This document shows, in pieces, positions 23,936 through 41,319 of a DNA stretch of 47,273 nt (position 1 is its first letter; each line of letters begins with the position of its first letter). The DNA comes from Pseudomonas phage JB8. The stretch lies in the sequence record PQ473534.1; one strand, written 5' to 3'. The notes under the pieces are model-generated. The model ran no database searches and was not told the DNA's origin. It was given only the letters and a program-made list of their open reading frames with translations. A program made the position numbers and the translations under genes.

Positions 23936-24347
23936 TGATTAGTTCACCTATTGTGTTTTCATCGAACCAACGAAAGCCGTTCTTATCGCACCATTCGAGG
24001 TGACTCATCTTGGTGCCATCAGTGCGGCGAGCTTGGAAGTGCATTGGCTTTGCTGGGTTCTCAAACACGAAGACCAACTCCATGTGCTCGGGAAGAGCCT
24101 TTCGTACCCATAGGTACTTGGTGCAATCTTCTCGATCTTGGAAGTATCCTTTGCATTCGACAAGGACGTCTCCAACTCGGAAGTCAGGTTCGTATGTGTG
24201 CTCCCATACATAGGGCACCCGTGGGGGATGATGCTCTGCGGTGGCAAGGAGACCCTCGTGGAGTCGGCGCTCCAGCGTTGAGTCATACTTGGTTCCCTTC
24301 AGGCTTTCATCTTTAGGTCGAAAGTATCGGCCATGTTTTGCAACCAT
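23925..24347 (-). CDS. T7 endonuclease I (gp3)-like Holliday junction resolvase
   Basis: HTYEPDFRVGDVLVECKG...ELVFVFEN...HLEWCDKNGFRWFD aligns with T7 gp3 HTYTPDFLLPNGIFVETKG...IRIVFSSS...YGEFCEKHGIKFAD, with the PD-(D/E)xK core conserved. Confidence 0.75.
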   Translation of the reverse strand: MVAKHGRYFRPKDESLKGTKYDSTLERRLHEGLLATAEHHPPRVPYVWEHTYEPDFRVGDVLVECKGYFQDREDCTKYLWVRKALPEHMELVFVFENPAKPMHFQARRTDGTKMSHLEWCDKNGFRWFDENTIGELINGL

Positions 24348-26251: not shown

Positions 26252-26525
26252 TGTCTTCTCCTACAACCTGTTTGACTACCAGCTCATCGTATGCTTCTTG
26301 AAGAGCCGTAGCGGTTGTTACTGCAAGTGGGAGATTCTGAGCGCTAGACTCAACAGTCCCATAGAGTTTGTTAACGACCGAATATTCACCGAGATTCCGA
26401 TCCGTCTTTTCCCTGGCCAGTGTTCGCCAACCAGGTGGAGTTACAACCACCAGGTAGATAGGGGTTTCAAAGACCGTTTGGTTTTTATTCAGTTGGTCGA
26501 TCTTCCAGAACAGTTCTTCAACCAT
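26208..26525 (-). CDS. hypothetical protein (105 aa)
   Basis: ORF. Confidence 0.45.
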   Translation of the reverse strand: MVEELFWKIDQLNKNQTVFETPIYLVVVTPPGWRTLAREKTDRNLGEYSVVNKLYGTVESSAQNLPLAVTTATALQEAYDELVVKQVVGEDNGKVTSIFRKDRPE

Positions 26526-26910
26526 TCGCTTCCTCCTTGGGAATCATACTCAGGATTCCTTCGAGATCAGGTACGGCTGGCGGACGGTCATCGATCAGTT
26601 TCCCGCAAGCTTCGGCATCAAGGAGGATGCCAAGGCAGGCCATTGCGTGAGCCAGGTGTTTAACTTTCGAGTCTGATGCTACATCTTCGCCACCATCGTA
26701 AAACAAGTCGATGTGACGCTTGGCTGCTGCTACATAGACCGAGGCTGCAACTCCAGTTTCCCTCCAGTTGGCGGGACCATACTTGCGAGCACCATCGGCG
26801 AATGCCTTGGCCATGTAGATGGTAGCTACTGCCGGCACAAGTTGCATGGGGGCTTTTTTGGCCCCCTGCAAACTTTTAGGATTGCCGTCAGGGTATTTAG
26901 TCTCAACCAT
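26518..26910 (-). CDS. dATP/dGTP pyrophosphohydrolase N-terminal-like domain protein (130 aa), tentative
   Basis: Start trimmed to the ATG at 26910 (GGGAGAGG RBS) just after the SSB stop. ARKYGPANWRE...AAAKRHIDLFYDGGEDVASDSKVKHLAHAMACLGILLD matches the KYG..NW ... RH ... E.D.ESG..HLAH pattern I recall for PF04447-type domains. Confidence 0.45.
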   Translation of the reverse strand: MVETKYPDGNPKSLQGAKKAPMQLVPAVATIYMAKAFADGARKYGPANWRETGVAASVYVAAAKRHIDLFYDGGEDVASDSKVKHLAHAMACLGILLDAEACGKLIDDRPPAVPDLEGILSMIPKEEANG

Positions 26911-26923
26911 AACGGCCTCTCCC

Positions 26924-27541
26924 TTACCAGCGATCATCTTCGTCGTCGGAGTTATCTTCCACATCCGAGGAGTCGCTGTCGTCCTCAGAGTCTTCACCTT
27001 CGGCTTTCTCGTACTTGCGGACACCCGAGGTATAACCATCATCCACCTCGGCCCAATCGCCTGTACCACCCGTAGACCCACCAACGATCTCGTGGAATCG
27101 AATCGCACGGAGACGCAGGGTCAGGCCGCCGCCAAAGCCCTCGAAAGGTACAACCTCGACTTCGACTTCACCTTTAGAACCAGCGAAGGGAGCCGGTGCA
27201 TCTTCGGGGTACTCGACGGTCTTACCATCAACGATGTGGTACAGGCGAGGTTTGACCTCCGTAGTCTCGCCAGACTTCAACTTGATGATCGCATGTTGCT
27301 TGGTCTTGAATTTGATCTGTCCATCAACCTTTGTAGGTTTCAGGCGCGCCTTCTTCCCTTTGACGGTAGCCCGAGCATCAGACTCTACGCGGGCGCAGAA
27401 CTCCTTAGCTTGTTCGGGCGTCATCAAGATATCAGCTTTGTAATCACCCTCTTTGTTGAACTGGGTGTCCGGCTTACGCAGGTAGCAATATCCAAGTTCA
27501 ACTACAGGAGTGGTCACGATAAAACGGTCGGCTTTAGCCAT
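26924..27541 (-). CDS. single-stranded DNA-binding protein (T7 gp2.5-like)
   Basis: GAGGTG RBS before the ATG at 27541. ~205 aa with an extremely acidic C-terminal tail, EDSEDDSDSSDVEDNSDDEDDRW, ending in an aromatic residue as in gp2.5. Sits next to the DNA polymerase. Confidence 0.55.
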   Translation of the reverse strand: MAKADRFIVTTPVVELGYCYLRKPDTQFNKEGDYKADILMTPEQAKEFCARVESDARATVKGKKARLKPTKVDGQIKFKTKQHAIIKLKSGETTEVKPRLYHIVDGKTVEYPEDAPAPFAGSKGEVEVEVVPFEGFGGGLTLRLRAIRFHEIVGGSTGGTGDWAEVDDGYTSGVRKYEKAEGEDSEDDSDSSDVEDNSDDEDDRW

Positions 27542-27553
27542 GTGTCTCACCTC

Positions 27554-29185
27554 TTAGTGTGTATCACGCCAGTTTGCACCAGCGATTGAATCTGATGCGA
27601 GCGGGATGTTCATCCCAAGAATCTCACCTGCTTTCTTCACGCACATGTCCATGAGTTCTCGTACACGTTTCACATCCCTAGGATGGACATCATACTGCCC
27701 CTCGTCGTGCATGTCAATAACTTTCAACGCATCCAGTCCCTCCTCTTGGATCGCTTCGTCCAGAAGGATCATTGCGTACTTCATCACCGTGGCACCTGCT
27801 CCTTGCAATAGCAAGTTCAATGCTTTGTGGGTCATCGGTCTACCCTTGGCATCCTTGCGGAGCCAAAGCTTCCGACCATCCAACCCAATGACATACCCTT
27901 GCTCGCCGTCTTCTTTGATCCTTTCGATCAGCTCTTTCAACAAAGGTAGAGATTCAAAGAACCTGTCCTTAATCTCCTTACCTTGGGCTCTCCCTCCCCC
28001 AATGATAGAACCAATCTTCTCGTCACCCGCACCGTACAGAAACGCATAGATAAATGTCTTCGCCGCGTCTCGGTTAGGTAGCCCAGCCATCCGCTGGTTA
28101 TACGAGTGGATATCACCCTCAAGAATCTGCTGGGTGTATGCAGGATCGTTAATGAAGTGGGCCAACATGCGGAGTTCTAGGCCGGCGCCGTCATACCCGA
28201 TAAACACCCTACGACCAGCGGGGACCCATACCTTATGGACTTCGCCTTTGCTATTAGCATTGGTCCCAGGTAGAGGTTCCACCCCACTGTGGTAGAAGAT
28301 GTATCCTCTCGGATTGTCCTTCTGGTCGCAGAAACCCGAACAGAAGATGGAACGGCACTGTGCGCCAAATAGAACATACTTAGCGGCCTTCGGGATGTTC
28401 ACTACACCCTTGTGCCGCATACGCATTGTTGGTGTGCCAATGGTGATCGCTTGGGCCTCAATGCGCCCATCATCACGCACAAGCTCCAACACACCTTTGA
28501 GCAACGATCTCCGGTGTGCATAGGTAAGGCGCTGTTTCAAGAGCAGACCAATCTCACCACCCTCGAACTTCTGGAGTGATTCTTCAGTCAGCTTGGCACC
28601 AGATGGCACCTTCTTCTTCTTGACGAGAAACTCTTTGACTTGGCGCTTGGTCATCTTACCTGGTTCCAACCCAAGGATTCTCATCTTGAGTCGACCCAGG
28701 CTAGACTTCTTGAGCCCAGCCATGTAGTTCTCTAGCGCGGCATCCAGTTCCTTTTGGTTCAATGGACGTTTGACGCTGGAGTGCATCGTAATGTCTTTGA
28801 ACTTCCAGGTATCAGGAACCCATCCAAGGTCGGCCAAATACTCTTTGATCGCCTCGGTCTTACCCATATCGAAGGGACGCCAAGAGACCCCACAGAAAGG
28901 ACCGTCGACTTGAAACTCAATACGCTCTGCGGCGAACCACTTGAGAACGTTAGCTTTAAGTACACCGGCTTTCGTGTAAGGCTCTGTAGCTGTGCAGCCC
29001 TTCTCCAGCATAAGCGGCATTTGAGGTACGGCTTGACGGTCTAAGGCGTTGATCTTCTCGTTCAAGATGTGGATATAGAATCCAGCCTTGACCTTATCAA
29101 CACGTACCCCATTATTCGCTTGCACGCTGATGATGGAAGCAACGGCTGTTTCACACAGGAACGCCTGCTTCCATGGGTCTGTCAT
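27554..29185 (-). CDS. DNA polymerase, family A, polymerase-domain part (part II of a split gene)
   Basis: Motif A IGYDGAGLELRMLAH, motif B RDAAKTFIYAFLYGAG, motif C VIDMHDEGQYD. Confidence 0.85.
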   Translation of the reverse strand: MTDPWKQAFLCETAVASIISVQANNGVRVDKVKAGFYIHILNEKINALDRQAVPQMPLMLEKGCTATEPYTKAGVLKANVLKWFAAERIEFQVDGPFCGVSWRPFDMGKTEAIKEYLADLGWVPDTWKFKDITMHSSVKRPLNQKELDAALENYMAGLKKSSLGRLKMRILGLEPGKMTKRQVKEFLVKKKKVPSGAKLTEESLQKFEGGEIGLLLKQRLTYAHRRSLLKGVLELVRDDGRIEAQAITIGTPTMRMRHKGVVNIPKAAKYVLFGAQCRSIFCSGFCDQKDNPRGYIFYHSGVEPLPGTNANSKGEVHKVWVPAGRRVFIGYDGAGLELRMLAHFINDPAYTQQILEGDIHSYNQRMAGLPNRDAAKTFIYAFLYGAGDEKIGSIIGGGRAQGKEIKDRFFESLPLLKELIERIKEDGEQGYVIGLDGRKLWLRKDAKGRPMTHKALNLLLQGAGATVMKYAMILLDEAIQEEGLDALKVIDMHDEGQYDVHPRDVKRVRELMDMCVKKAGEILGMNIPLASDSIAGANWRDTH

Positions 29186-30339: not shown

Positions 30340-30628
30340 CGGTTTTACCCTTCGGTTCGATTTCAATCTTGATGGGGGAGATCTTGATGAAGCCCCCGTT
30401 GTTCAGACCAGCTTGGACGATATCCTTGTAGAAACCACGGATATTCGCCTTCACCAAACCTAGAAGGAACTCTTCACCTTCCAGATTCTTGAGGTGAGAG
30501 ATCGCCGGATCGTCGTCGAACTCACCAGCTTTGATCTTCTGGAGTGTGTTCTCCAACTCGGCCTTGTCCTCCTCACGAAGAACAGCGGTCATGTTGAAGT
30601 TCATGTTGATTTTGAAAGATTGGCTCAT
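30317..30628 (-). CDS. hypothetical protein (103 aa) inside the polymerase split
   Basis: ORF with ATGA overlap onto the exonuclease-part stop. My hand count of the displayed line 30541-30628 disagrees by one nucleotide with the track frame, so the coordinates are taken from the track. Confidence 0.35.
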   Translation of the reverse strand: MSQSFKINMNFNMTAVLREEDKAELENTLQKIKAGEFDDDPAISHLKNLEGEEFLLGLVKANIRGFYKDIVQAGLNNGGFIKISPIKIEIEPKGKTDGESEAA

Positions 30629-31164
30629 TTTACTATCTCCAAGTCGCCTCGACGGATTGCCTCGGCTAGACGTTTCAGTTCTCTTGCATCTACTCCAAAC
30701 CAGTCAGCCCAACCTAGGCGATGCAAGAAGTAGAGGAACAAGACGGCGTTTACACGGACGTCCTGGGCGCAATACTCCAACATTTCCTTGGTGAATACGG
30801 ACCAGTCTGCTGTTTTACCGAAGGCATCCTTGTGGAACTTGAGGTAATAACCCCAGTACTCCAGAGAGTGGGCCTTCCGTTCCGGGTTTAGAAGTCGGCT
30901 AAGAACCAACGTATCAAAGCAAAAGCCAGGAAACTCAAACCCGAAGAGCTTCCTGAGTGCAAGTAGGTCGAACCCTTTAAAGTTATGTCCAACAACGCAG
31001 CACGAAGCCGCAAGCTGGTCCAGGTAACCCTGGATTTCATCTGGTCCATACCTATACTCCTTGAGTTCGAACGGATTGATATGTACCCCACAGTGCATCG
31101 TGGTGATCTTGTACAAGAGGTTGTTACCCTCAATGTCAGATACCAGAGTCCCATGCGGGTTCAT
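30625..31164 (-). CDS. DNA polymerase 3'-5' exonuclease-domain part (part I of the split gene)
   Basis: TLVSDIEGNNLLYKITTMHCGV aligns with the T7 gp5 N-terminus MIVSDIEANALLESVTKFHCGV (Exo I). HNFKGFDLLAL is Exo II-like and EYCAQDVRVNA is Exo III-like. Start placed at the ATG at 31164 (GGAG RBS). Confidence 0.7.
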   Translation of the reverse strand: MNPHGTLVSDIEGNNLLYKITTMHCGVHINPFELKEYRYGPDEIQGYLDQLAASCCVVGHNFKGFDLLALRKLFGFEFPGFCFDTLVLSRLLNPERKAHSLEYWGYYLKFHKDAFGKTADWSVFTKEMLEYCAQDVRVNAVLFLYFLHRLGWADWFGVDARELKRLAEAIRRGDLEIVK

Positions 31165-32851
31165 TGTCTTCTCCATCCATTGGAATGCCGGAGAAGTTCT
31201 CTTCAAGTCGTCCGGTGTCAGGATTGTAGATGGTGTTAATAAAGCCAGTTCTCCCATTCTCTCGGTCCTTTAGAACTCGGATCTTGCTGCAATGCTTCAA
31301 CTCTCCCTCTGCGTACAAGTTCCGTTCGAACCCAAGCATGACGTTAGACCAACGCTGCAAAGCCCTTGAACCAGTGAACTGAACAGGACGAACCTCTCCA
31401 CCCTCCTCGTGGCTTGGGCCACTGGCTGGGGGATTCAGGTGCGAGAACACAATGATTGTCACGTTTAGTTCATCCGCTAGGCCATGCGCCTCAGTGGCGA
31501 TACGAGCAATCTCAGTGTTTTGTTCGGTTGAGTTAAGGGTATTCACTAGGGTGGTTACGTTGTCCACGAAGAACAGCTTAACCCCCATGACCACAGCGAA
31601 GTACCTAATACATGCTGCTACGTTATCCCAATTGTTCTCACCTTTGTTCTTCCAGAGGTGGAGCATTCCTTCGAGATCATACTCAGCGATAATCTGCTGG
31701 AGCAAGTCCTCTTCCAGTTGGGAGTTTTTACCAATCGGGATTCCACTAAGGGCAGTCGCCAGGTTGGTTAGGGTTTTACCAATCCTCTCCTCCATGTGGA
31801 ACATGGCCACTGGGACCTTATGCACCTTGATGAAGTGAGAACTGATCGCATGGCTCAGAAGAGTCTTACCGATACCGGCGCCCCCTCCGATAGACCATAG
31901 CTCTCCCCAACGTAGCTCTATGAGCTGATTGAGCCCATCCCACGGAAGGGTGAAACCCAGTGGGGCTGACTCTCGTGCGTCTTTCAGTGCATCCTGCACC
32001 GTAGCTGCACCATCGGGAGACTTGACACGGGCTCCCCAAAGAAGTGTTCTAAACAACTCTTTGTTTCGCCCAGCCATCAACATGTCGTTCGCGTCCTTTA
32101 GGGTTGTACAAACCCCTTTCAGACTCGGCAACAAAGATCGACCGCGTTGGTATGACTCCATACCTGCTTGATCGTTGTCGTAGACGTAGATTATCTCGTT
32201 GAATTTAGACACAATGTCCTTATCAATAAGATATTGCAGGGTATCTACGATAGACCCGCTGCCCGAAGACAGCCCCAGACAGGCTGGGTGCATGTGGGTA
32301 AATCCTTCTTTGGCGAACTCTTTGAGCACCTTGTACCCACTCATGGCACTCAGTTCATCCTCGAAGATGAACAGCTTCTCTGTCCGAACGTTCTTGTTAT
32401 TTAGGGTGTCTATCCCAAAAGGTAATCCCTTAGGTCCTACTGAGTAAAACCCCTTTGGATCGACGACCCTAACGTTGTACCGGCAGATCGTACCATCTGC
32501 GCTGAAGCGGGGGTAGTAATGCTCGGTAATTGTTTGGCCATCACGAGTGGATAGACCAACGCGGACACCGTAATACTCGCACACCCAATCAGGTATGCGA
32601 CGAGAGTCCAACGTTCGGATCGGGTACTGCCCAATCTCTTCCAGACGTTCCTTAAGTTCATCTTTATCCCATTCCTTTTTCTTGTTAAGGTCGACCTTGG
32701 AGGCGTCCTTCTCGTAGTGTCCACATTTCGGGCACTTTGCGAAGTGCTCACCGTCCTCTCCCTCGAAGAGGATCAGGTGGTTGCCTTTAGAGTCTCGCCC
32801 CATGGATCTGCAATTAGGGCAGGGGGCGTCACCAATAATCTTCTTACTCAC
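31136..32851 (-). CDS. bifunctional primase-helicase (T7 gp4-like)
   Basis: N-terminal zinc finger CPNCRS...CPKCGH. TOPRIM motifs FEDELSAMS and VYDNDQAG. Helicase Walker A GGGAGIGKT. Confidence 0.85.
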   Translation of the reverse strand: MSKKIIGDAPCPNCRSMGRDSKGNHLILFEGEDGEHFAKCPKCGHYEKDASKVDLNKKKEWDKDELKERLEEIGQYPIRTLDSRRIPDWVCEYYGVRVGLSTRDGQTITEHYYPRFSADGTICRYNVRVVDPKGFYSVGPKGLPFGIDTLNNKNVRTEKLFIFEDELSAMSGYKVLKEFAKEGFTHMHPACLGLSSGSGSIVDTLQYLIDKDIVSKFNEIIYVYDNDQAGMESYQRGRSLLPSLKGVCTTLKDANDMLMAGRNKELFRTLLWGARVKSPDGAATVQDALKDARESAPLGFTLPWDGLNQLIELRWGELWSIGGGAGIGKTLLSHAISSHFIKVHKVPVAMFHMEERIGKTLTNLATALSGIPIGKNSQLEEDLLQQIIAEYDLEGMLHLWKNKGENNWDNVAACIRYFAVVMGVKLFFVDNVTTLVNTLNSTEQNTEIARIATEAHGLADELNVTIIVFSHLNPPASGPSHEEGGEVRPVQFTGSRALQRWSNVMLGFERNLYAEGELKHCSKIRVLKDRENGRTGFINTIYNPDTGRLEENFSGIPMDGEDNEPAWDSGI

Positions 32852-33299: not shown

Positions 33300-33716
33300 T
33301 CAGTAGTAACGGTTGTTGTGACGACGAGAGAAGACGTAATCTACCCAGTCGCCATTTTCTACGACTTCTTGTGAACGGTTGCCACCGTACTCGCCACCAT
33401 CTTCGATGTGGTAGATCAGAGCGACCTGGCCGTCTTCGGTTTCGATCTCACTGCGGTTGTAAAAATTATCTTCATCCTCGCCCCGATAGCCCTCCAGGCT
33501 GTTGAGACGATCCAGGGTTTTATCATCTACTTCGTATACCTCAATCACAATCGGGCATACGGGTTCAGAGTTAAGTGCGACACGAGGAAACCCACCAAGG
33601 CTATACATCTTGTATGGCCGTTTGGTTCGAGTCCGACTGAGCATCACCGAACCATCCAGCAGACGATTATTACCCATACCATACCGCAGGGAACCATAGA
33701 CAGCTACTTTTGTCAT
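33300..33716 (-). CDS. gamma-glutamyl cyclotransferase / AIG2-fold protein
   Basis: Start at the ATG at 33716 (AAGGAG RBS). VAVYGSLRYGMGNNRLL is the YGSL motif, and a conserved Glu is present in LNSLEGYRGEDE. 138 aa. Confidence 0.65.
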   Translation of the reverse strand: MTKVAVYGSLRYGMGNNRLLDGSVMLSRTRTKRPYKMYSLGGFPRVALNSEPVCPIVIEVYEVDDKTLDRLNSLEGYRGEDEDNFYNRSEIETEDGQVALIYHIEDGGEYGGNRSQEVVENGDWVDYVFSRRHNNRYY

Positions 33717-33726
33717 CGTTTTCTCC

Positions 33727-34674
33727 TTAAGCGTCATAATCATCATCATCGAAATCATCGCTGTCGTCGTCGGCGACGTTCTCGTGAGCATAGTCAGGAA
33801 GTTTTACTTTGATCTCTTTGTTATCTTTCGAGACCAACCCCTGATGCGGTGGCTTTTTCCAACCCAAAGAGGCCAGTTCTCGCTGGGCCTCGTTGATGGC
33901 ATCTGCATAAAACTCGCAGGTTGTTCCCTCCAAACCTGGAGCAGTGTTCACTTCGAGAACAACGGAACCTTCGGCATGTTTGTCCATTTCGATCAGGTCA
34001 ACTGCGCCGAAGTCCAGACCGAGCGCCTTGATGGCCCCAACCGCAGCGTCTACTGTGACGTCTCGCGGCTTCTGGATGTTGGCTTCTTCGTGAGCGAACA
34101 CCCAACCACCGTCCAAGTTACGAACCAGGTTGGTATAGTTCTCGTTCTCTTGGAACCCACGGCGGCGGAGTTTCTGCTGGATGAAGATCCGTCGGGTTGA
34201 ACCAACGCCGAACACGTGGATTCGGTACTCCCGGCGCTTACCCTTCATCCCCATCGTGTAAAGGGGAGCATCGGGTAGGGTTGAGTTGGCACCTTCGATT
34301 ACTTCGATACCTTCCCCGGCAGAGGAACGCAGAAGTTTTCGAACATAGATTCGTTCCCCTTTGATCAGCCAATCACGAGCAACGTTGATATCGTTGGTGA
34401 ATTTGGGAATCGGAACCCCTGCTTCTTCCAAAGCCACGAAACACTTCAGCTTGTTCAGACAGGTATCCGAAGATTTATCGTTGAGGATAACTCGGCTGTG
34501 CTGAATCACTGAATTATCCAGTTCGAAACATCCCCACTTGATCGCCAGATCACGGCGATATGCGCCTACTGAGTTGCGCACTTTGAATACCCGGTGGTTC
34601 TTACTTACCAGGGAGTTTTTCAGATTGACTGCACCTTGGGAAGGACCATTGGTGACGATTCGGATAGTACTCAT
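33727..34674 (-). CDS. ATP-grasp ligase (RimK / glutathione-synthetase-like)
   Basis: 315 aa. C-terminal GLDFGAVDLIEMDKHAEGSVVLEVNTAPGLEG (the E.N metal-binding motif of ATP-grasp enzymes). Acidic C-terminal tail. Confidence 0.6.
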   Translation of the reverse strand: MSTIRIVTNGPSQGAVNLKNSLVSKNHRVFKVRNSVGAYRRDLAIKWGCFELDNSVIQHSRVILNDKSSDTCLNKLKCFVALEEAGVPIPKFTNDINVARDWLIKGERIYVRKLLRSSAGEGIEVIEGANSTLPDAPLYTMGMKGKRREYRIHVFGVGSTRRIFIQQKLRRRGFQENENYTNLVRNLDGGWVFAHEEANIQKPRDVTVDAAVGAIKALGLDFGAVDLIEMDKHAEGSVVLEVNTAPGLEGTTCEFYADAINEAQRELASLGWKKPPHQGLVSKDNKEIKVKLPDYAHENVADDDSDDFDDDDYDA

Positions 34675-34679
34675 TTCGT

Positions 34680-34922
34680 TTACCTCTTCTCGTTGAAATC
34701 ACTGGGCAAAGCTTCGGCTGCCTCGTGGATAATTCGTTGAATCAGAGTCGGGAACGGCAACTCAACATCAAATCCCCGCTCTTCCGACTCTTGTTTTTCA
34801 TGGTAGGCTCGGAGAATCCGAAGTTCATCGCAGGTCTTCTCGGTCATCGGAACCTTACGAACAACCACGATTTCACTATCAGGAATCCGGACTACGGTAG
34901 CTAGTACTTCTTTATTAGCCAT
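34680..34922 (-). CDS. hypothetical protein (80 aa)
   Basis: Start trimmed to the ATG at 34922 (AAGGA RBS), right after the amidotransferase gene's stop. Confidence 0.4.
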   Translation of the reverse strand: MANKEVLATVVRIPDSEIVVVRKVPMTEKTCDELRILRAYHEKQESEERGFDVELPFPTLIQRIIHEAAEALPSDFNEKR

Positions 34923-34926
34923 TGTT

Positions 34927-36534
34927 TTATTCCTTATTTTGATCCCCATGCTTGATGGCATAGGCAGCATCGATTTCCTCTACATACTGCACCATTTCTC
35001 GATGGCAGCGTTTGGAGCACGACAGATAGTTGTTGAGGCGAGCAACCTCTTCATCAACATGTTGGAGTAAGAACATGGTTCTCGGCGAACGGTTGGTCAA
35101 CCACTTACCACAATTGGCACAGCAGTTCTTGTTCTCCTCCATTACATCCCGCCACCGGGAGACAGGGTACTCTTCATTAGCAAGAACAATCATTGTCCCG
35201 GTTTTGTCGACATTGCGAGCCGCATTTTTATCGACTTGATTTTCCTTCTTTTTGATCTCAGCCTTACGGGCCTCGATTTGTGGCTCGGTCCAATAGGAGA
35301 AATAAGATCTTCCGGTGATCCTCTCCTTTTGGAGGGAGAACAGGCTCATTTGGTGTTTACCACCATCCGTGTTCGGGCAGATGATCTCTTCGATCGTATA
35401 GTCAGTTACATCCATGACCGACCCGATCTGTCCATACACGAACTTTCCAATGTCCTCTTCAGTGAGGGTGCTTGCTGTGCTGTTCTGGTGGCAATAGCAG
35501 TGGAACCGGTGGGGAATCCCCTCCATATCCATGTACTCGAACAGAGCAATCGGAATAGTTTTCCTTTCAGTATATCTGCTGATCGGCTCGATACTACCAA
35601 TGTATTTAACTTCCAAATACGAGTTAGTATCAGCAGTTGGAATAAACGTCTGGATGACCTTATCCTGACGTACCAACTCTGGAGACCTGGTGTACGTTGT
35701 CCGAGTTACTCCAGTATTACATGATCTGGAATAATTCCCCCAGTTGTCGTAACCGGACCCTCCATAGGAAATTACTGGAAAATCCGGCAGGGTCTTCCGT
35801 GCTAGACGTGGAAGAGGCATCGCTCGGGACTTGTCTTCGAATTCGAAAGACAGATGCGTTCCAACGGTCAGTTGGTAAATCTGCTGCACATCCACACCAT
35901 CCTCTTTTACGACTTCGAACTTGAGGCTTTTGTGCCGGTTAACCAACCAACGGAGCATTCCCATTTCGCTTGCCCACACCCAGCACCCGTTGGTGAGCTT
36001 GGCGATGGCCAAAGGACGCTCATCGTTACGGATGAAGTTGAGGGTGTTATCTTTTCGGCTGTACCACACCAGGGCAAAGGCTCCGTTCAGCTTCTCCAGG
36101 GTGTTATCCAAACCGTTCTTGTTCATGTGGTAGAAAATGTTTTCACTATCTACCGCAAAGTTCTTGTGATCCTCCAATAGAGACTGCTGACGCAGGCTGC
36201 CATTGTGAACACCGACGATATCCCCGCTGACAAACGGGTGGGCGTACTCATCCTTCGCCTTGTCTCCGGATGTTGCGAATCGGTTGTGTCCGATGTAGAT
36301 GTTGAAGTTGTGCTTCGGAAGAAACAGGTTATCCATCTGTTCTTTTAGCTCTAAGAACAACGGCGATGGAATGGCCTTCTTTTCAACCGTTAAGCTGTTG
36401 TCGAAGGTGTCAATGGCTGCTACGCCGGTGGCGTGAGCCCCACGAATTACATCATGGAGGAGCAGACTTTGAAAGAACTCTTTCATCTGCACAGACATTG
36501 GCCCTGGACTTGCTACGCCTACGATTCCACACAT
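34927..36534 (-). CDS. class-II glutamine amidotransferase / Ntn-hydrolase domain fused to a ~300-aa C-terminal region with a zinc ribbon
   Basis: Begins MCGIVGV (catalytic Cys2 after Met removal). RGAHATG and HNRFATSG follow, like HxRxAT in PurF/GlmS/AsnB. C-terminus carries CCANCGKW...CSKRCH. Confidence 0.7.
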   Translation of the reverse strand: MCGIVGVASPGPMSVQMKEFFQSLLLHDVIRGAHATGVAAIDTFDNSLTVEKKAIPSPLFLELKEQMDNLFLPKHNFNIYIGHNRFATSGDKAKDEYAHPFVSGDIVGVHNGSLRQQSLLEDHKNFAVDSENIFYHMNKNGLDNTLEKLNGAFALVWYSRKDNTLNFIRNDERPLAIAKLTNGCWVWASEMGMLRWLVNRHKSLKFEVVKEDGVDVQQIYQLTVGTHLSFEFEDKSRAMPLPRLARKTLPDFPVISYGGSGYDNWGNYSRSCNTGVTRTTYTRSPELVRQDKVIQTFIPTADTNSYLEVKYIGSIEPISRYTERKTIPIALFEYMDMEGIPHRFHCYCHQNSTASTLTEEDIGKFVYGQIGSVMDVTDYTIEEIICPNTDGGKHQMSLFSLQKERITGRSYFSYWTEPQIEARKAEIKKKENQVDKNAARNVDKTGTMIVLANEEYPVSRWRDVMEENKNCCANCGKWLTNRSPRTMFLLQHVDEEVARLNNYLSCSKRCHREMVQYVEEIDAAYAIKHGDQNKE

Positions 36535-36557
36535 TGGTTATTCTCCTCTATGATCCT

Positions 36558-38477
36558 TTATTGGGCGTAATAATATTTGACTGGTGACCCATCGATAGAG
36601 CTAGCCCACATGTTATCTCCTGTCATAGAGCGGGCTTCATCCAGTCGACTAGACAACACTGATCTATCTACCTGTGGATTCCCCCTATCCACTTCTCTGA
36701 AGAAAGAACCAATGCTTCTCATCTTTAGAGGTCGAGTTGGAGCAAACATCACTGGGTAATACATTTCTTTATTGTCGAAGAAACGAGAGAGTTCACAATA
36801 ATTTTTGAAGATGTGCATGTCTCCCCGGAATACATGGTTGGTTGGGTTAACCAGGGCCGCTCTGACAAGGATTATGGCATAACTTGTATGGCATGTTTGA
36901 GGAACAAACATGTTGAAACCATGCTCTTCAAGCCGTCTTTGCAACATCTCTCTGTTCTTAAGACGAACAGTAGACTGGGCTGCCCTCAACCACAACTGGG
37001 AGTTTACGATCGAATTGGAAGCGGAGTTGGAGACTCGGGTGTTAAAGATACAGGACACCAGGTTGTTTAAGCGCCTTTCTTTAGATTCGTCGTTTGCTCC
37101 AATAGGAATATAATTTTGCAACCACGCAAGCCTTGGAATTTTCGAATACTCCAAGTCGAACATAGCTTCTATAGCAGTTTGGACAACATCCAACCCATCT
37201 ATTGCTAATCTTGCAGATCCAGCGGCGATCTGAGCAATGGGGTTATATCGATGACCAATCTGGTGTTGTCCAGAGAGCCGGCCTATTTTCTGGAGGAAGT
37301 GTCCCAGGAATTTATCCGGAGCAGCGTGCCGATCCCTGACTTCTGTTAAACCATAGGCAATACCATCGCTGATAGACGTTAGCCTCCGGTCTCCATTGTT
37401 CATTCGACTCAGAGCCATCCTGAGATACTGTAGACCAGCGAACATCGGATCTTCGGAGGTTGGGATCAACGACGTACTTACGTCATGTGTTGAAGGCGCT
37501 TGGCGAGTTGATCCAGTAGCGGCTCTGCTGGCCTCTAATGCTGCTGATATTCGATCAAAAGTCATATTTCGTTCAACGATCTCTTCCCTTGGATCCCTTT
37601 GAGAAGAAGCCACACTCTGACCTTCCTGGTTGGATTTGAGCAGCAACCAGGCGTTTACCATAGCTCGCTCCAAGCGATCCACTTGGGCAGACAGCCCATC
37701 GGAGATACCGCCGGCGTATACCGAGGACTCCACACCAAGAGCGTTGATGTGGTTCAGCATGGCTTCTGCATCCCCTTCGAACTCCCGGACGAACTTCTTG
37801 ATCGCCAATAGCAGATTGGCCAACTTCAGGAATTCCTCCTTCGTGGTCAGTGCTCGGCTACCACGGAACTCGATGGTTCCCAACGCCCGGTTGTCATTTC
37901 GACCATCAGGAAACATGGGAAGGATGTTGAGAGCGGTATACTTGTTGCAATACCGATAGGTCTGACGCCAGGATTCGTAGGCTTGCTCCACGATCCGGGA
38001 GATCAGATTCTTGTGGAAAGGAACGCTCTCTGACACCGGAGTACAGAAGTTCGACGAGTACCGATAATCCCCACAGAAGGTGAACAGGATCGGCTCACAT
38101 GCAGTGTACGCCAGGATGAACTTCACCACCTGTGGGATGGTGAAATCACGCATGTTTACATGCATGTGGGTAGAACACCGAAAGGTGTCACTGAAGGGTA
38201 CTTCCTGCAAGAGGTTATGCATCCGAGTGAATGCATCCTCCAGTACTGCACCCCCGAGCCCACCATTGGTAATGAACTCGACCCCGCCATTGCGAAGGGA
38301 GCCATCCCTGGTAGTGGACCAGAGATTTCCCAACATGGACTCTGCCGTGCGAATGGAGGAACTGCCGAATCCCTCCAACTCCAGCTCTACTCCAACGGCG
38401 TCTGGAGCGACGAGGGAAGGGTGCGGATCGAATACGCCGAGCTGATCGAGTCCCAGTTGCTGGCCAACAGTTTGCAT
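36558..38477 (-). CDS. amidoligase (COOH-NH2 ligase, glutamine-synthetase fold, YbdK/GCS2-like) N-terminal domain fused to a ~330-aa uncharacterised C-terminal domain
   Basis: GVELELEG resembles YbdK GIELEMQ. TRDGSL and GVEFIT follow. CSTHMHVNM resembles YbdK QHVHVG. GGGAGA RBS. Confidence 0.6.
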   Translation of the reverse strand: MQTVGQQLGLDQLGVFDPHPSLVAPDAVGVELELEGFGSSSIRTAESMLGNLWSTTRDGSLRNGGVEFITNGGLGGAVLEDAFTRMHNLLQEVPFSDTFRCSTHMHVNMRDFTIPQVVKFILAYTACEPILFTFCGDYRYSSNFCTPVSESVPFHKNLISRIVEQAYESWRQTYRYCNKYTALNILPMFPDGRNDNRALGTIEFRGSRALTTKEEFLKLANLLLAIKKFVREFEGDAEAMLNHINALGVESSVYAGGISDGLSAQVDRLERAMVNAWLLLKSNQEGQSVASSQRDPREEIVERNMTFDRISAALEASRAATGSTRQAPSTHDVSTSLIPTSEDPMFAGLQYLRMALSRMNNGDRRLTSISDGIAYGLTEVRDRHAAPDKFLGHFLQKIGRLSGQHQIGHRYNPIAQIAAGSARLAIDGLDVVQTAIEAMFDLEYSKIPRLAWLQNYIPIGANDESKERRLNNLVSCIFNTRVSNSASNSIVNSQLWLRAAQSTVRLKNREMLQRRLEEHGFNMFVPQTCHTSYAIILVRAALVNPTNHVFRGDMHIFKNYCELSRFFDNKEMYYPVMFAPTRPLKMRSIGSFFREVDRGNPQVDRSVLSSRLDEARSMTGDNMWASSIDGSPVKYYYAQ

Positions 38478-39013
38478 ACGAATTCTCCCAGTTTCTCTTT
38501 TCCAGGAACGAGGATAAGGTTGCCTTCTGCATCTATGTTCGCAACCACATCTTGTTCGTAATAAATTTGGTTCTGATGGATGATCACATCAGGGTTAATT
38601 CGAGAGCTGTTCCCGTACCAGACCTGGCGAACAACTTCTCGATTGGTGACCTCTATGCCCCTGAAACTTTCAGGGGATGGGCTGTTCCAACGGACCAGCT
38701 CTTGGTTATATCCCTTACGCATTCGACGCTGTGGCGAACGCGAGAGGTAATACCAATGGCCGCCGGTACGAACCCACCCCAGCCGAGGTACTGTGACGTC
38801 GAGATCAGAGAAGTTGACATGGATGTCATCACTCCAATCACCGGACTCAGGCAAGGTGCGTATCCGAGCCATGGCGTGGTTACGCTGCTCCCCTTGGTAT
38901 ATCTCACAAACATACGCCGGCTTACCTTCGTAGGTAAGAACGCAGTTGTGATAATAGTTCCGAAGGTCGTTAACCAGGTCGAAGTTCTCGATTTGAACAT
39001 CTGCCCTTGGCAT
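38387..39013 (-). CDS. hypothetical protein (208 aa), overlaps the downstream amidoligase gene by ~90 nt
   Basis: ORF within the ligase island. No recognisable motif. Confidence 0.4.
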   Translation of the reverse strand: MPRADVQIENFDLVNDLRNYYHNCVLTYEGKPAYVCEIYQGEQRNHAMARIRTLPESGDWSDDIHVNFSDLDVTVPRLGWVRTGGHWYYLSRSPQRRMRKGYNQELVRWNSPSPESFRGIEVTNREVVRQVWYGNSSRINPDVIIHQNQIYYEQDVVANIDAEGNLILVPGKEKLGEFVCKLLASNWDSISSAYSIRTLPSSLQTPLE

Positions 39014-39014
39014 G

Positions 39015-39812
39015 TTACACCCCCAAATTAACCAGGAGTTTCAGCATTGCCTTGGCCTCGACACGGTTGTTCGTGTTGATGGCGTTCTGCACGTCTTCCA
39101 GGGGGATGATCGCCTTGAGTTCTTCCAGGCGCTCATGCTTACTGAAAGCGTTCTGGGCGCGCTTGTGGATCAGGCACACCAGCTCATCATCCCACACCCA
39201 ATAGTTGCTCAGGGTGCGGTACTCGATGCCATAGGGCTTGAACCGACCGGCGCCGGCACGACCATACAGTTCACGACGACGATCATCGGTGTCTTCCAGA
39301 AGAGACGGGAGACCGAGGACGTAATCACACATCTGGCCAACCCGAATCTGCACGTCACGGGTCACTTCAACCAGGTGGTCGAAACCGATGTGAACGTGAC
39401 CGCCCGCAGTGCGAAGGCACTCGTTGGTGGCCGACGGGCTGGGGTTCTCTTCGCCGGTCATGAAGTTGTAATCCGGGGTACAGCCGAACTCGAAAGCCTT
39501 AGGCGGGAACGTGGCCAGGACTTCCGGGTTGTAGATGTGGCTGCTTACGCCGGGAACCAGTCGCAAACCGTGTTGCAACAGGATATCTCGGCCCTGGGAA
39601 AGGACGGTGCGAAGCCGCTGGAGGAACACATCGGGGTCATCCGAGGGATCGACGTTGCACTCGAACAGAACGTTATCCTCCTGGATACCGCCGTCGAGGA
39701 CGAGGAGAGGGGCTTGCTTGCTGCCACCCAGCATGTCGATGCAGTGAACGATATTCGGGCCTTCGGCCACGAAAGCTTCCGGGTCGGTTCCGATCAATGC
39801 GCGTTGTACCAT
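39015..39812 (-). CDS. second, shorter amidoligase-like protein (YbdK/GCS2-like), tentative
   Basis: N-terminal IGTDPEAF (degenerate G.E.E) and TAGGHVHIGFDH, which resembles the YbdK GQHVHVG metal-site motif. Confidence 0.5.
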   Translation of the reverse strand: MVQRALIGTDPEAFVAEGPNIVHCIDMLGGSKQAPLLVLDGGIQEDNVLFECNVDPSDDPDVFLQRLRTVLSQGRDILLQHGLRLVPGVSSHIYNPEVLATFPPKAFEFGCTPDYNFMTGEENPSPSATNECLRTAGGHVHIGFDHLVEVTRDVQIRVGQMCDYVLGLPSLLEDTDDRRRELYGRAGAGRFKPYGIEYRTLSNYWVWDDELVCLIHKRAQNAFSKHERLEELKAIIPLEDVQNAINTNNRVEAKAMLKLLVNLGV

Positions 39813-39825
39813 TTTATTTCACCTC

Positions 39826-41100
39826 TTAGTGAATGACACTTTCGGACCAAGCCATGTAACCTTGAGAAGCTTGGGCCACGTTGTTGTTTCTCTGCGGATC
39901 CACAGGCTCACGAAGGTCTTTGAAGCCACCTTCAGATACCGGGTCTCTGATGACAGATTGCAGAACAGGAAGGATGCGTACGACTTTCAGAAGATACAGA
40001 TCTTCCAGCTTATTACGGTTTTGTGTAAACCACTGATTGGCATCCGAGTATTGAACCATCCGGTTGGCAGACAGTACCTGTTCAGCGGAATGGAAAATCG
40101 AATGGGCTCGGTGGAGAAGAGCCATCGTATCCCTTACTTGCTGAGTAACTGTCTGATTACGTTGCGCCGCCGCCGTCGCGACATTGCTTGCCAGGGTATG
40201 AGACTGTCCACCCTTGAGATATCTCCCCTCAACCAACATGGATTCAGTCCTCCGGAAGAATGGCTCCAAAGAGAACATCCCGTAACGGATACCCTGCAAT
40301 GCAACCATGTGGTTGGAGTACGACAGAATGTCGCTATCATCCCCATGGTTGAACATCCCGGAAAGATAGACTCCAGGATATCCGACCTTCATTGCCCCCT
40401 CGTAATCACAGAGAAGCTCCTGGAGGAAGTTCTCTGCCGGGGAGGAGTTATACGGACTGCGGGTGGGACAGGCGATTACCTGAGACACGTTTCGGAAAAC
40501 TTGCAGGTAAGAAACTGCCATCCCGGAACTTCGCTCCGAACCCACGAAATCCAACAAAGTGTGGTTGTAGCAGTGGTTCATAACCAAAGCTCTTAGGACC
40601 ACACTTGAATTCCGGGTGTTCCAACTGTTTGTAATTGAAAACACCTTCATGAGGTTTTTAATCTCCAGCTCGTTCGGAGTAAGAGCCCTTTTGGTTCTGA
40701 CGATATTACCAGTCCAGGGGCTTACCGTATCCGAAATGGCCTCCCTGCAAAGAAGACTTGCAATAACCCTGTTGGTGTGTAATGTCCGTGCGCCGGCGTT
40801 GGGATTGTTGAAGCCTTCCCAAGTCGGCACGTATGGACTGATCCATCCGATCCCTAGGCAGGACCAACCCGTCAGGGTTTGAGAATCCTGGGTTACGGTC
40901 ACTTGCGATGGGACAGGAAGATAGCCCCTGGCTGTAGAGTTGGGAACAGTAACCATAATGCTGCCACCTGCCCCAACAGGAGCAGAGAAAGCATTGGCCG
41001 TGTTGAACCCGTTGAAACAGATGAACTCACGGAGATCGAAGTAGTAATCCGTGAATGCCCCTTGGCTTGACGGGCGCTTGAACAGGACTGTCACATACAT
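39826..41100 (-). CDS. hypothetical protein (424 aa), first gene of the ligase island
   Basis: Large ORF preceded by a 216-nt intergenic region. Confidence 0.5.
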   Translation of the reverse strand: MYVTVLFKRPSSQGAFTDYYFDLREFICFNGFNTANAFSAPVGAGGSIMVTVPNSTARGYLPVPSQVTVTQDSQTLTGWSCLGIGWISPYVPTWEGFNNPNAGARTLHTNRVIASLLCREAISDTVSPWTGNIVRTKRALTPNELEIKNLMKVFSITNSWNTRNSSVVLRALVMNHCYNHTLLDFVGSERSSGMAVSYLQVFRNVSQVIACPTRSPYNSSPAENFLQELLCDYEGAMKVGYPGVYLSGMFNHGDDSDILSYSNHMVALQGIRYGMFSLEPFFRRTESMLVEGRYLKGGQSHTLASNVATAAAQRNQTVTQQVRDTMALLHRAHSIFHSAEQVLSANRMVQYSDANQWFTQNRNKLEDLYLLKVVRILPVLQSVIRDPVSEGGFKDLREPVDPQRNNNVAQASQGYMAWSESVIH

Positions 41101-41211
41101 TTTGTCATGCCTCTTGACACGTTGATGGTTGGCGTGCTACCCTAACCCTATAGGTGCCGCCGATAGGTTATACTCTTAGTGTTTACTCTATGTGTCCTAA
41201 CTATAAGAACA

Positions 41212-41319
41212 CTAAATAAACCTATAGAGCTGCTGGGACAGCAGATCGAAGACGTAAACCACGGCAGCAATACCTATGGCGAACGCCAACGTGAGCAGAA
41301 TCTCTTCGAGCTTACTCAT
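41212..41319 (-). CDS. hydrophobic micro-ORF (35 aa) MSKLEEILLTLAFAIGIAAVVYVFDLLSQQLYRFI; not in the ORF track
   Basis: GGGGTGG RBS 5 nt upstream. ATG overlaps the end of the secreted-protein gene. Single predicted TM helix. Confidence 0.2.
   Translation of the reverse strand: MSKLEEILLTLAFAIGIAAVVYVFDLLSQQLYRFI

Follow-up and report, generated by a model that had tools for sequence, protein, structure and literature searches.

What does a compact block of amidoligase and hydrolase genes beside the replication genes of Pseudomonas phage JB8 make or modify in the infected cell?

Gene content of the block

A sequence-only reading had placed eight minus-strand genes at 33300–41100 of the window (the whole stretch of 47,273 nucleotides analysed, PQ473534.1), and all eight ORFs were found there, tightly packed, with gaps of 1–23 nt and a single 91-nt overlap (U208/L2) inside the block and intergenic gaps of 208 and 215 nt at its flanks. 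Transcription of the whole block runs towards the primase/helicase gene directly downstream (31136–32851; phrog_239, 2.5e-144), in keeping with the earlier statement that the island sits next to the primase-helicase. The longest-ORF starts were overcalled for two genes. Based on the gene calls on the sibling contig L005, a 97% identical comparison genome, their likely products are the 80-aa DUF7195 protein (34680–34922) and the 138-aa GGCT (33300–33716), the start of the latter at 33716 agreeing with the L005 call.

Three of the proteins are assigned as ligases. L1 (39015–39812, minus strand, like all features below) is a 265-aa phiEco32-type COOH-NH2 ligase (type 2), based on matches to PF14395 (4.5e-9, which passes the Pfam cut-off) and phrog_3815 (3e-96). 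It is 63–66% identical to its counterparts in Lyrsu01 and Bjorn and 41–45% identical to those in ECBP2 and 7-11, has the conserved motifs DPE, QEDNVL.E, RTAGGH.H.G and EYR.LSN, and belongs to a family that is essentially phage-restricted (5 loci in 185,579 species genomes versus 76 viral contigs). The 639-aa L2 consists of an Amidoligase_2 catalytic domain (residues 1–295; 37593–38477) and a C-terminal tail (residues 296–639; 36558–37592) that had no match in Pfam and ends in a small ferredoxin-like alpha/beta domain. The predicted model of the catalytic domain (pLDDT >90 for residues 1–290) has the glutamine-synthetase/glutamate-cysteine-ligase/PafA fold; its invariant residues include D58-G-S-L-R-N-G-x-E67, R100, H104, H106, E128 and E203-F-R205, and its relatives comprise 5242 representatives of 50%-identity clusters at E ≤ 1e-3. 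The third ligase, GRASP (33727–34674, 315 aa), is a RimK-family ATP-grasp protein that matches phrog_2599 (6e-74). Its NCBIfam matches (MptN 3e-10, RimK family 3e-9, LysX 6e-5, Ddl 0.06) are all under the curated cut-offs (40 bits versus 143–350), and in the PDB it matches alpha-L-glutamate ligase 7qys (0.015).

GAT (34927–36534, 535 aa) is a class-II (Ntn) glutamine-amidotransferase-like protein, with matches to GATase_6 (6e-16) and GATase_7 (3e-7) over about residues 1–235. Its Cys1, Arg (HNRFAT), Asn-Gly (VHNGS) and Asp (AVDSE) align to glutamine-binding residues of GlmS/PurF, every one of which is kept, including those that bind the alpha-amino and alpha-carboxyl groups, and in all 82 homologues the Cys codon comes right after the start codon. 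We rejected an ordinary PurF, GlmS or AsnB because the scores against the purF, glmS and asnB models (at most about 40 bits, with asnB about 16) are far under the cut-offs of about 270–420 and there is no cognate synthase domain. The C-terminal half of GAT had no Pfam match in five phages, and the zinc ribbon previously proposed at its Cys-rich end is just a CxxC...CxxxCH pattern with no significant profile match. GGCT is an AIG2/GGACT-type gamma-glutamyl(amine) cyclotransferase, based on its match to PF06094 GGACT (5e-16) and to no peptidase family; it also matches E. coli YtfP (1xhs, 6e-7), B. subtilis YkqA (1.6e-4) and human GGACT (0.34), and the motif YG[ST][LM] is present in 71 of 71 homologues.

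The domain calls of the sequence-only reading are supported by this profile and fold evidence: the N-terminal domain of the 639-aa protein has the GS/GCL fold, the 265-aa protein belongs to PF14395 and the 535-aa protein contains an Ntn amidotransferase domain. The motifs it quoted are also in the expected proteins (GHVHIGF in L1, GVELELE and STHMHVNM in L2, MCGIVGV and HNRFATSG in GAT, and YGSL in the product of the last gene). At the level of Pfam, PF14395, GATase_6/7 and GGACT were matched, but the PF12224 match of L2 and the ATP-grasp match are under the curated cut-offs. Catalytic motifs are kept across 71–88 homologues per family, which suggests that the cassette enzymes are active.

The remaining three proteins have no assigned enzymatic role. 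U424 (39826–41100, 424 aa), the first gene, had no match in Pfam, PHROG, NCBIfam, PADLOC or PDB sequences and has just 19 homologues among 5.8 billion clusters; the AlphaFold model of its unassigned fold has a pLDDT of 79 and a pTM of 0.82, and it has weak motifs in common with the same-position genes of ECBP2 and 7-11. U208 (38387–39013), an unannotated core protein of about 200 aa, matches phrog_11055 (5e-24) but gave no match in PDB and Pfam searches and no detectable fold relatives. It is strongly diverged (22% column identity), and its conserved elements are D16, P-x-L-G, Y-K-x-x-x-V-G and, as the main one, a basic R-x-x-[KR]-[KR]-G loop. We consider U208 a candidate partner, adaptor or substrate of the enzymes, although it could be an unrecognised enzyme or chaperone instead of a substrate. 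The DUF7195 protein (PF23825, 1.9e-19; no match in the PDB) has the conserved core VVTRKVPMT..TCDELR.IR...IPFPTLI and, going by its sequence pattern, is possibly a ribbon-helix-helix regulator; it is unlike carriers of the Pup or LysW type in lacking a conserved C-terminus. All eight proteins appear to be cytoplasmic, as none has a hydrophobic segment >1.6 (Kyte-Doolittle, 19-residue window).

A known phage cassette and its distribution

The block is almost certainly a divergent representative of a conserved phage cassette, the phiEco32/LUZ24-type amidoligase cassette, which is already annotated in many short-tailed phages and comprises three amide-bond ligases and two glutamine/gamma-glutamyl-cutting enzymes. 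Our census of 87 loci has a conserved core of six genes in one orientation and translationally packed: L1, U208 (80/87 loci by iterated HMM, always between L1 and L2), L2, GAT, the ATP-grasp gene (77/87) and the cyclotransferase. The gene for DUF7195, in the window inserted after GAT, is present at 28 of the loci, and U424 at six, all of the Bjorn/Lyrsu-like clade. The description as an eight-gene island makes the unit too large, the conserved core being of six genes. Gene order is identical in Lyrsu01, Bjorn, ECBP2, 7-11, UFV-P2 and about 70 independent IMG/VR viral contigs, an arrangement far beyond chance.

The island is thus less novel than had been implied, as the same cassette, order and position were already annotated in other phages; the link drawn to comparative-genomic work on amidoligases was right. 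In LUZ24-like phages the cassette has been annotated since at least 2014 (PMC3890496), and a seven-gene "peptidoglycan modification cassette" is common to RIO-1, phiEco32, 7-11, LUZ24, PaP3 and CW02 (PMC5498523; PMC11945000). Elsewhere the genes are labelled as nitrogen/gamma-glutamyl-cycle auxiliary genes (PMC10945688), so that published readings disagree between the cell wall and nitrogen metabolism. The earlier remark that such a phage system has no known activity or product holds across the literature searched, in which we found no experimental test of what the cassette makes or modifies.

The closest named relatives are Lyrsu01-03 (PP179323 and relatives) and Bjorn (NC_042103, Bjornvirus), whose 46–47 kb genomes carry all eight genes in unchanged order, with U424 and a long L2 tail, likewise upstream of the primase/helicase. 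There is no nucleotide-level match between them and the window; GAT identity is about 44–47% to Lyrsu01 and 40–46% to Bjorn, varying with the alignment, and U424 identity in this comparison is 31%. The window is a distinct lineage, otherwise seen just in Logan and metagenome contigs. The "putative peptidoglycan modification module" of phiEco32, LUZ24, 7-11 and RIO-1 has the same six-gene core order plus DUF7195, the same Pfam and PHROG families and a position beside replication genes. It differs in lacking U424 as such (one or two distantly similar genes are there), in its usually domain-only L2 of about 370–400 aa and in the C-terminal extensions of GAT and the ATP-grasp protein, the acidic tail of GRASP being confined to the window, L005 and the contig L012.

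The exchangeable tail of L2

Divergence between the window and L005 is concentrated in the L2 tail, which has 64% amino acid identity (dS 0.57, dN/dS 0.31), whereas the catalytic domain is identical at 295 of 295 residues (dS 0.049). This difference is a domain-level swap at the domain boundary, a detail new here, and the dN/dS of 0.31 indicates recombination under purifying selection, positive selection not being demonstrable. Mean pairwise identity among 43 clade members is 21% for the tail versus 60% for the catalytic domain, and the Bjorn tail is largely unalignable to that of the window, the match being limited to query residues 1–294. In most other clades L2 is only 305–400 aa; the 340-aa tail and U424 are specific to the Bjorn-like clade. 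Since both are missing from most clades, neither can be essential to the core mechanism.

Proposed chemistry and possible targets

We think it reasonably probable that the cassette carries out ATP-driven writing and trimming of gamma-glutamyl-type amides, which, for the cassette as a whole, we infer from distant family membership. The gamma-glutamyl theme is based on the L2 fold, the glutamine-binding residues of GAT, the PF06094 match and the glutamate-ligase relatives of the ATP-grasp protein. The reactions would take place in the host cytoplasm in early or mid-infection, the early timing being based on the fact that homologous genes of Pseudoalteromonas phage HP1 are "expressed immediately" (PMC7082346). 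L1, L2 and the ATP-grasp enzyme would each activate a carboxylate as an acyl-phosphate and join it to an amine, so that up to three amide bonds would form, at least one of them a gamma-glutamyl-amine, with the RimK-type enzyme probably adding glutamate to a terminal carboxylate. GAT, as a Cys1 Ntn enzyme, would bind a moiety with the free alpha-amino and alpha-carboxyl groups of glutamine and then either give ammonia to a ligase or hydrolyse a gamma-glutamyl amide, and the GGACT enzyme would free the amine, cyclising the gamma-glutamyl group to 5-oxoproline, so that a bond is written and then trimmed or erased.

The weakest step is the target. We tentatively favour a protein, in the form of a macromolecular amine, probably that of a lysine in either U208 or a host protein, with U208 and the swappable L2 tail serving as specificity elements. 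Supporting this suggestion are the facts that U208, with its basic loop as the main conserved element, is fast-evolving and non-enzymatic-looking, yet as universal as the enzymes, and that the L2 tail is swapped at a domain boundary between 97%-identical genomes. The explanation that combines the cassette, the write/trim chemistry and this favoured target is the best that we have overall, and we give it an even chance.

A soluble product is a rather unlikely alternative, in which a glutathione-like peptide, gamma-glutamyl-polyamine or other amine conjugate would be made or turned over, as a phage gamma-glutamyl cycle that diverts nitrogen, thiol or polyamine pools of the host or, in a variant, with gamma-glutamyl serving transiently as a protecting group, as happens in butirosin synthesis. 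Free gamma-glutamyl amines are substrates of GGACT enzymes, the enzymes have their counterparts in the Meister cycle (GCL-fold ligase, GshB/RimK-type ATP-grasp, Ntn hydrolase and cyclotransferase), GAT is predicted to bind a free glutamine-like moiety and L2 is annotated as "gamma-glutamylcysteine ligase-like" in some records. There is, however, no equivalog-level NCBIfam match to GshA, GshB, PuuA or ChaC; U208 together with swappable non-catalytic extensions would be unusual for a pure metabolite pathway, and we see no clear reason for a six-gene metabolic loop to be kept beside the replication genes by strictly lytic phages whose hosts differ widely. Indirect evidence comes from Phage-ZRK32, whose copies of these genes were read as nitrogen and amino-acid auxiliary genes and which, with NH4+ or NO3-, is reported to have stimulated growth of a Pseudomonas strain (PMC10945688).

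More doubtful is action on the cell wall, where the ligases would assemble an atypical peptide on precursors of peptidoglycan and the hydrolytic pair remodel stem peptides, altering the envelope after infection so that superinfecting phages are excluded or lysis is primed. Four papers credit this view to Iyer et al. 2009 and Hardies et al. 2013 (PMC10580990, PMC5498523, PMC11318856, PMC11945000), and the immediate-early expression in HP1 suits superinfection exclusion (PMC7082346), but in the literature searched the argument is by analogy, with no experiment found. Signal peptides and membrane segments are absent from all eight proteins, so that cytoplasmic UDP-MurNAc-peptide precursors would be needed. 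Gamma-D-glutamyl and amidated residues are indeed part of stem peptides; nevertheless, the block has no Mur-ligase domain, its ATP-grasp protein is RimK/MptN-like (1e-9 to 1e-10) and not Ddl-like (0.06), the sole "cell-wall" match is one sub-threshold choline-binding repeat in U208 (1/31 members), and hosts with different wall chemistry are also involved (among the phages, 14 Arthrobacter phage records and one Planctomycetes phage). The constant position immediately upstream of primase/helicase and polymerase would suit an amino-acid-derived hypermodification, on phage DNA or alternatively on a nucleotide or tRNA, as a shield against restriction or other defences aimed at nucleic acids. This is very improbable, given that genomic DNA of the cassette-bearing LUZ24-like phage U17 is susceptible to digestion with 11 of the 16 restriction enzymes used (PMC11945000) and that searches of the block (Pfam, PHROGs, NCBIfam) matched no family of base-exchange enzymes, hydroxymethylases, kinases or DNA transferases; the BASEL authors favour a dCTP deaminase and a nucleotidyltransferase instead.

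The proposed writing and trimming of amides has partial counterparts in known systems. Among named enzymes, the ATP-grasp protein is closest to the alpha-L-glutamate ligases RimK, LysX, MptN and CofF. Their substrates are proteins or cofactor tails, which they extend at a terminal carboxylate by glutamate or a related amino acid, but the cassette core encodes no acceptor of the S6 or LysW type whose acidic C-terminus is conserved. Butirosin BtrJ/BtrG and ergothioneine EgtA/EgtC follow a gamma-glutamyl "protecting-group" logic in which the added group is later taken off by BtrG, a GGCT-fold protein, or by EgtC, an Ntn hydrolase like the class-II amidotransferases. The likeness, an ATP-grasp or GCL-type adder with a GGCT-fold or Ntn remover, is at the family level only, and the cassette has no carrier protein, aminoglycoside or histidine-betaine genes. 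In actinobacterial pupylation, PafA/Dop, a ligase forming gamma-glutamyl-lysine isopeptide bonds is paired with a removing enzyme. The cassette likewise pairs bond-making with bond-removing enzymes; it differs in having no Pup-like tag, as the DUF7195 core is structured and its C-terminus not conserved, and in its erasers, which are an Ntn hydrolase and a cyclotransferase rather than a ligase paralogue.

Layout of the cassette and its conserved core

The amidoligase island recognized from the sequence alone is borne out by the ORF list as eight consecutive minus-strand genes (33300-41100), and each of the motifs quoted for it was found in the translated ORFs. In transcription order the genes encode U424 (424 aa, no assigned function), L1 (265 aa, a PF14395-type COOH-NH2 ligase), U208 (208 aa, no assigned function), L2 (639 aa, an Amidoligase_2 catalytic domain with a C-terminal tail), GAT (535 aa, a class-II/Ntn glutamine-amidotransferase-like protein), a DUF7195 protein, an ATP-grasp protein (315 aa) and a cyclotransferase. 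Spacing within the cassette is 1-23 nt, apart from the U208/L2 junction, where the two ORFs overlap in different frames by 91 nt (38387-38477) in the window and in a sibling contig alike, compared with just 4-28 nt at this junction in other phages. The longest-ORF starts were over-called for two genes; based on the sibling gene calls and homologue alignments, DUF7195 starts at 34922 (80 aa) and the cyclotransferase at 33716 (138 aa). A hydrophobic stretch fitting a signal peptide or membrane helix was present in none of the eight proteins, all of which are predicted to be cytoplasmic.

The cassette is flanked by intergenic gaps of 208 and 215 nt, and a scan of the block found fewer promoter-like and terminator-like sites within it than in shuffled sequence. 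Next downstream is the primase/helicase gene (31136-32851; phrog_239, 2.5e-144), and after it come genes for a split family-A DNA polymerase, exonuclease, nucleotidyltransferase, endonuclease and metallophosphoesterase, while upstream there are small ORFs only. The layout shows a set of enzymes predicted to be transcribed together, before the replication genes. In the 215-nt gap, which lies upstream of U424, there are two exact copies of CTATAGGKTTA (41143-41153 and 41217-41227), a sequence which, with one mismatch allowed, has four matches in the window versus 0.76 expected. They may represent a promoter or an operator, possibly one serving the DUF7195 protein.

To place the cassette among its relatives, the L1 family was scanned in bacterial, archaeal and viral collections, which returned five loci from 185,579 bacterial and archaeal species genomes (mostly phage-sized metagenome-bin contigs) and 76 IMG/VR contigs. 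An ORF and iterated-HMM census over 87 loci, the window included, identified L1 in all 87, the L2 catalytic domain in 83, the GAT N-domain in 82, the U208 family in 80, the ATP-grasp in 77, the cyclotransferase in 71, DUF7195 in 28 and U424 in six, with many of the absences being contig ends. The gene order L1-U208-L2-GAT-(DUF7195)-ATP-grasp-cyclotransferase is near-invariant, the catalytic motifs are kept, and minimal forms exist of L2 (about 305-310 aa), GAT (about 373-390 aa) and the ATP-grasp (about 254 aa). Based on this order and these minimal forms, we define the unit as a core of six genes; U424, the long C-terminal tail of L2 and the acidic ATP-grasp tail are ornaments found in the Bjorn-like clade. 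U208 is an overlooked universal member of the cassette and, of the two proteins with no assigned function, proved to matter more.

Assignment of the cassette proteins

L1 matched PF14395 ("phage phiEco32-like COOH.NH2 ligase type 2") at 4.5e-9, which exceeds the Pfam cut-off, and phrog_3815 at 3e-96. The Amidoligase_2 call made earlier on the 639-aa L2 holds through its match to PHROG amidoligase families (4e-49) and through homologues that carry PF12224, but its own PF12224 score (0.022) is sub-threshold in Pfam. AlphaFold modelling of L2 from 49 sequences gave very high confidence for residues 1-290, and the family shows no variation at the expected acidic, His and Arg positions. There was no NCBIfam match for either ligase, and the N-terminal extensions on fused amidoligase relatives contain no Pfam domain and hence provide no Rosetta-stone clue. 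We also considered a detectable homology between L1 and L2 and rejected it, as their hhalign comparison was not significant, though two His motifs line up.

U208 matches only PHROGs without a function, and no credible relative was found in the PDB or Pfam, relaxed thresholds included. Its family has 22% column identity, with the conserved elements being an Asp, P-x-L-G, a basic R-x-x-[KR]-[KR]-G loop and Y-K-x-x-x-V-G. PDB sequence searches with U424, L1, L2, U208 and DUF7195 returned nothing useful.

GAT matched GATase_6 (6e-16), and its alignment to GlmS and PurF paired Cys1, the Arg of HNRFAT, the Asn-Gly of VHNGS and the Asp of AVDSE. In enzymes of this type the aligned residues hold the alpha-carboxyl and alpha-amino groups of glutamine. 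The housekeeping enzymes PurF, GlmS and AsnB have the same Cys1 glutaminase domain and glutamine-binding Arg, Asn-Gly and Asp residues; however, GAT is without their cognate synthase domains (PRTase, SIS and Asn-synthetase, respectively) and without an equivalog-level score, having 40 bits to the purF model (cut-off 350), 36 to glmS (cut-off 418) and 16 to asnB (cut-off 267). Its C-terminal half (300 residues) gave no credible Pfam match in any of five phages, relaxed thresholds included. These low scores, along with the unmatched C-terminal half, indicate that GAT is not a stray housekeeping enzyme. GAT adjoins L2 in 82 loci of the census, and in 82/82 GAT homologues the Ntn Cys directly follows the start codon, which is non-ATG in 12. 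In those 12 the Cys is preceded by an Ile or Leu codon, implying the non-ATG starts. The deposited GAT starts in Bjorn (NC_042103; locus L002, 7001-7037) and ECBP2 (NC_018859; locus L003, about 6998-7031) are downstream of the catalytic Cys.

The ATP-grasp protein matched phrog_2599 at 6e-74. Its named NCBIfam relatives are, from weakest to best, LysX, RimK and MptN (up to 3e-10), with D-Ala-D-Ala ligase at 0.06. As it scored only 36.6 bits against TIGR00768 (cut-off 143) and 22 against LysX (cut-off 276), its kinship to RimK/LysX is at the superfamily level only. Its C-terminus (33727-33780) is extremely acidic: ADDDSDDFDDDDYDA. Similar tails are present only in the sibling contig and in one other locus (L012), and the ATP-grasp proteins of other clades have unrelated C-terminal extensions of 120-350 aa. 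A role for the acidic tail as a general self-substrate was ruled out, as it is confined to one clade (three loci).

The cyclotransferase matched PF06094 GGACT (5e-16) and aligns end to end with Escherichia coli YtfP (6e-7), YGSLR included. The 80-aa protein matched DUF7195 at 1.9e-19, and its non-conserved C-terminus ruled it out as a Pup- or LysW-like carrier. For U424, 5.8 billion clusters yielded just 19 homologues, and there was no match to profiles or PDB sequences. Its model is decent (pLDDT 79, pTM 0.82) but had no match by Foldseek, and profile-profile comparison of U424 with both ligase families gave none either, so that its candidacy as a third, degenerate glutamine-synthetase-fold ligase is unsupported.

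The sibling contig (Logan SRR27544729, 47,447 bp; locus L005) is 97.4% identical to the window across 16.7 kb, with 0-10 mismatches per 200 nt in nearly all bins other than those at 36558-37600, where mismatches peak at 35-53. This diverged stretch (10880-11917 in L005) encodes the C-terminal 340 aa of L2, with the boundary between the two domains as its breakpoint. In the catalytic domain the pair is identical (295/295 aa; dS 0.049, dN = 0, dN/dS not applicable), whereas the tails have 64% amino acid identity (dS 0.57, dN/dS 0.31). For the remaining seven cassette proteins, identity between window and sibling is 98.3% or more, and in five of the seven it is at least 98.7%. Among 43 clade members the mean pairwise identity is 60% for the catalytic domain versus 21% for the tail, for which Pfam searches at relaxed thresholds found nothing credible. 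The L2 tail has undergone recombinational module exchange at the domain boundary and is under purifying selection; the divergence does not demonstrate positive selection. The window and its sibling are thus a natural domain-swap pair of genomes, flagging the part of the cassette most likely to carry specificity. A second, small hot spot of divergence from the sibling lies in GAT (35200-35399), with 22 mismatches in one 200-nt bin; it is a 12-nt indel, by which L005 gains SQSQ, within the Lys/Glu-rich linker that precedes the Cys-rich end.

Relatives and possible role

No nucleotide-level relative of the cassette was found by megablast among 50,697 phage records, while tblastn of the same records gave 328 with the amidotransferase and 287 with the amidoligase. 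The closest by GAT are Pseudomonas phages Lyrsu01-03 (44% identity) and Bjorn (40%), in which the same eight genes are annotated in identical order before the primase/helicase. The core is also common to the phiEco32-like ECBP2 and Salmonella phage 7-11, and the cassette is also listed in the annotation table published in 2014 for the LUZ24-like phage UFV-P2 (PMC3890496). The window has every structural feature of the phiEco32/LUZ24-type cassette (PF14395 ligase, second amidoligase, GAT, ATP-grasp and cyclotransferase), in the same order and at the same place, preceding the primase/helicase of a lytic podophage-type genome. The sequence-only reading was right at the domain level, based on profile, model and alignment evidence; the novelty it implied did not hold, as the cassette is long annotated and widely conserved. 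For a specialist it is still the expected content of a Bjorn/LUZ24-type genome, to which the window adds a new diverged lineage, and our analyses add the definition of the six-gene core, the recognition that U208 is universal, and the swap of the L2 tail.

Published accounts differ in how they name these genes. They are a "peptidoglycan modification cassette" or "module" in RIO-1, phiEco32, 7-11, PA11, tf, LUZ24, PaP3 and CW02 (PMC10580990, PMC11318856, PMC5498523, PMC11945000), an idea that these papers trace to Iyer et al. (2009) and Hardies et al. (2013). In Phage-ZRK32 the gene set was described as nitrogen/gamma-glutamyl-cycle auxiliary genes (eLife; PMC10945688), and in Pseudoalteromonas phage HP1 homologous genes were "expressed immediately" (PMC7082346). 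The literature searched contained no biochemical or genetic test of cassette function, peptidoglycan included, and no report of a product, target or phenotype, and a search for bacteriophage amidoligases with glutamylation had no match. None of the eight proteins matched PADLOC models of anti-phage defence or candidate systems.

Family assignments show the cassette to encode putative members of three ATP-dependent carboxylate-amine ligase families and two predicted enzymes acting on glutamine or gamma-glutamyl amides, all with intact active-site motifs. From family chemistry, each ligase would form an amide bond via an acyl-phosphate, with the RimK-type ATP-grasp probably adding glutamate onto a terminal carboxylate. 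GAT would recognise a free glutamine-like head group and either feed ammonia to a ligase or hydrolyse a gamma-glutamyl amide, and the GGACT-type enzyme would convert a gamma-glutamyl-amine to the amine and 5-oxoproline. The coherent reading is of a cassette that would write and trim gamma-glutamyl-type amide bonds.

The weakest step is the acceptor. We lean, tentatively, to a macromolecular amine, probably a protein lysine, because U208 is universal, fast-evolving and non-enzyme-like and the L2 tail is swappable. The small tag of the Pup system, with its conserved C-terminal Gly-Gly-Gln/Glu, is absent (the DUF7195 C-terminus is not conserved, and the census found no further small conserved ORF in the core that could be a Pup-like tag), and, relative to RimK/LysX carrier systems, the ATP-grasp is below the family cut-off and no acceptor with a conserved acidic C-terminus was found in DUF7195 or U208. 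That the product is instead a soluble gamma-glutamyl metabolite or part of a protecting-group pathway is rather doubtful; the cassette has no equivalog-level GshA, GshB, GGT or ChaC and its ATP-grasp no GshB-model match, so that its resemblance to the glutathione/gamma-glutamyl cycle is one of fold and reaction class only.

Modification of cytoplasmic peptidoglycan precursors, the reading closest to the published name, we consider unlikely, as it is weakened by the lack of export signals, Mur-type domains and Ddl-type ATP-grasp affinity. The striking restriction resistance of Gordonclarkvirinae would suit hypermodification of nucleic acid, but LUZ24-like DNA proved sensitive to 11 of 16 restriction enzymes (PMC11945000), and the hydroxymethylase, 5-hmdU kinase, DpdA and amino-acid:DNA transferase of phage DNA hypermodification are absent by Pfam, PHROG and NCBIfam, making such a role very improbable.

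Returning to the macromolecular acceptor, we propose, speculatively, that the cassette might be a phage post-translational (or macromolecule-directed) glutamyl/peptide writer-eraser for host takeover or counter-defence, its target chosen by U208 and, in Bjorn-like phages, by the swappable C-terminal module of L2. If true, such a system would add a new class to the viral protein modifications of bacteria, conceptually akin to the ADP-ribosylation carried out by phages or to Legionella SidJ glutamylation. The cassette spans several podophage groups, among them genera proposed for therapy (LUZ24-like and Kuravirus), occupies 5-8 kb of 45-90 kb genomes and has been kept beside replication genes across very deep divergence; its function, once solved, could be assigned to hundreds of annotated genes.

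The surrounding genome

The family-A DNA polymerase of the window is split into exonuclease and polymerase subunits with several small ORFs between them (27554-29185 and 30625-31257), a likeness to LUZ24/Bjorn-type phages. The replication arm also encodes a MazG/dGTP-pyrophosphohydrolase-like protein (26518-27108), a metallophosphoesterase (23168-23935) and a nucleotidyltransferase (24347-25165; phrog_1614); the BASEL authors regarded a nucleotidyltransferase beside Gordonclarkvirinae replication genes as a possible clue to DNA modification. No tRNA genes were found in the window (1-47273), nor direct repeats of at least 30 nt, implying that the terminal redundancy was not captured. The plus-strand structural genes (about 650-22240) converge on the minus-strand early and replication genes (about 47000-23170).
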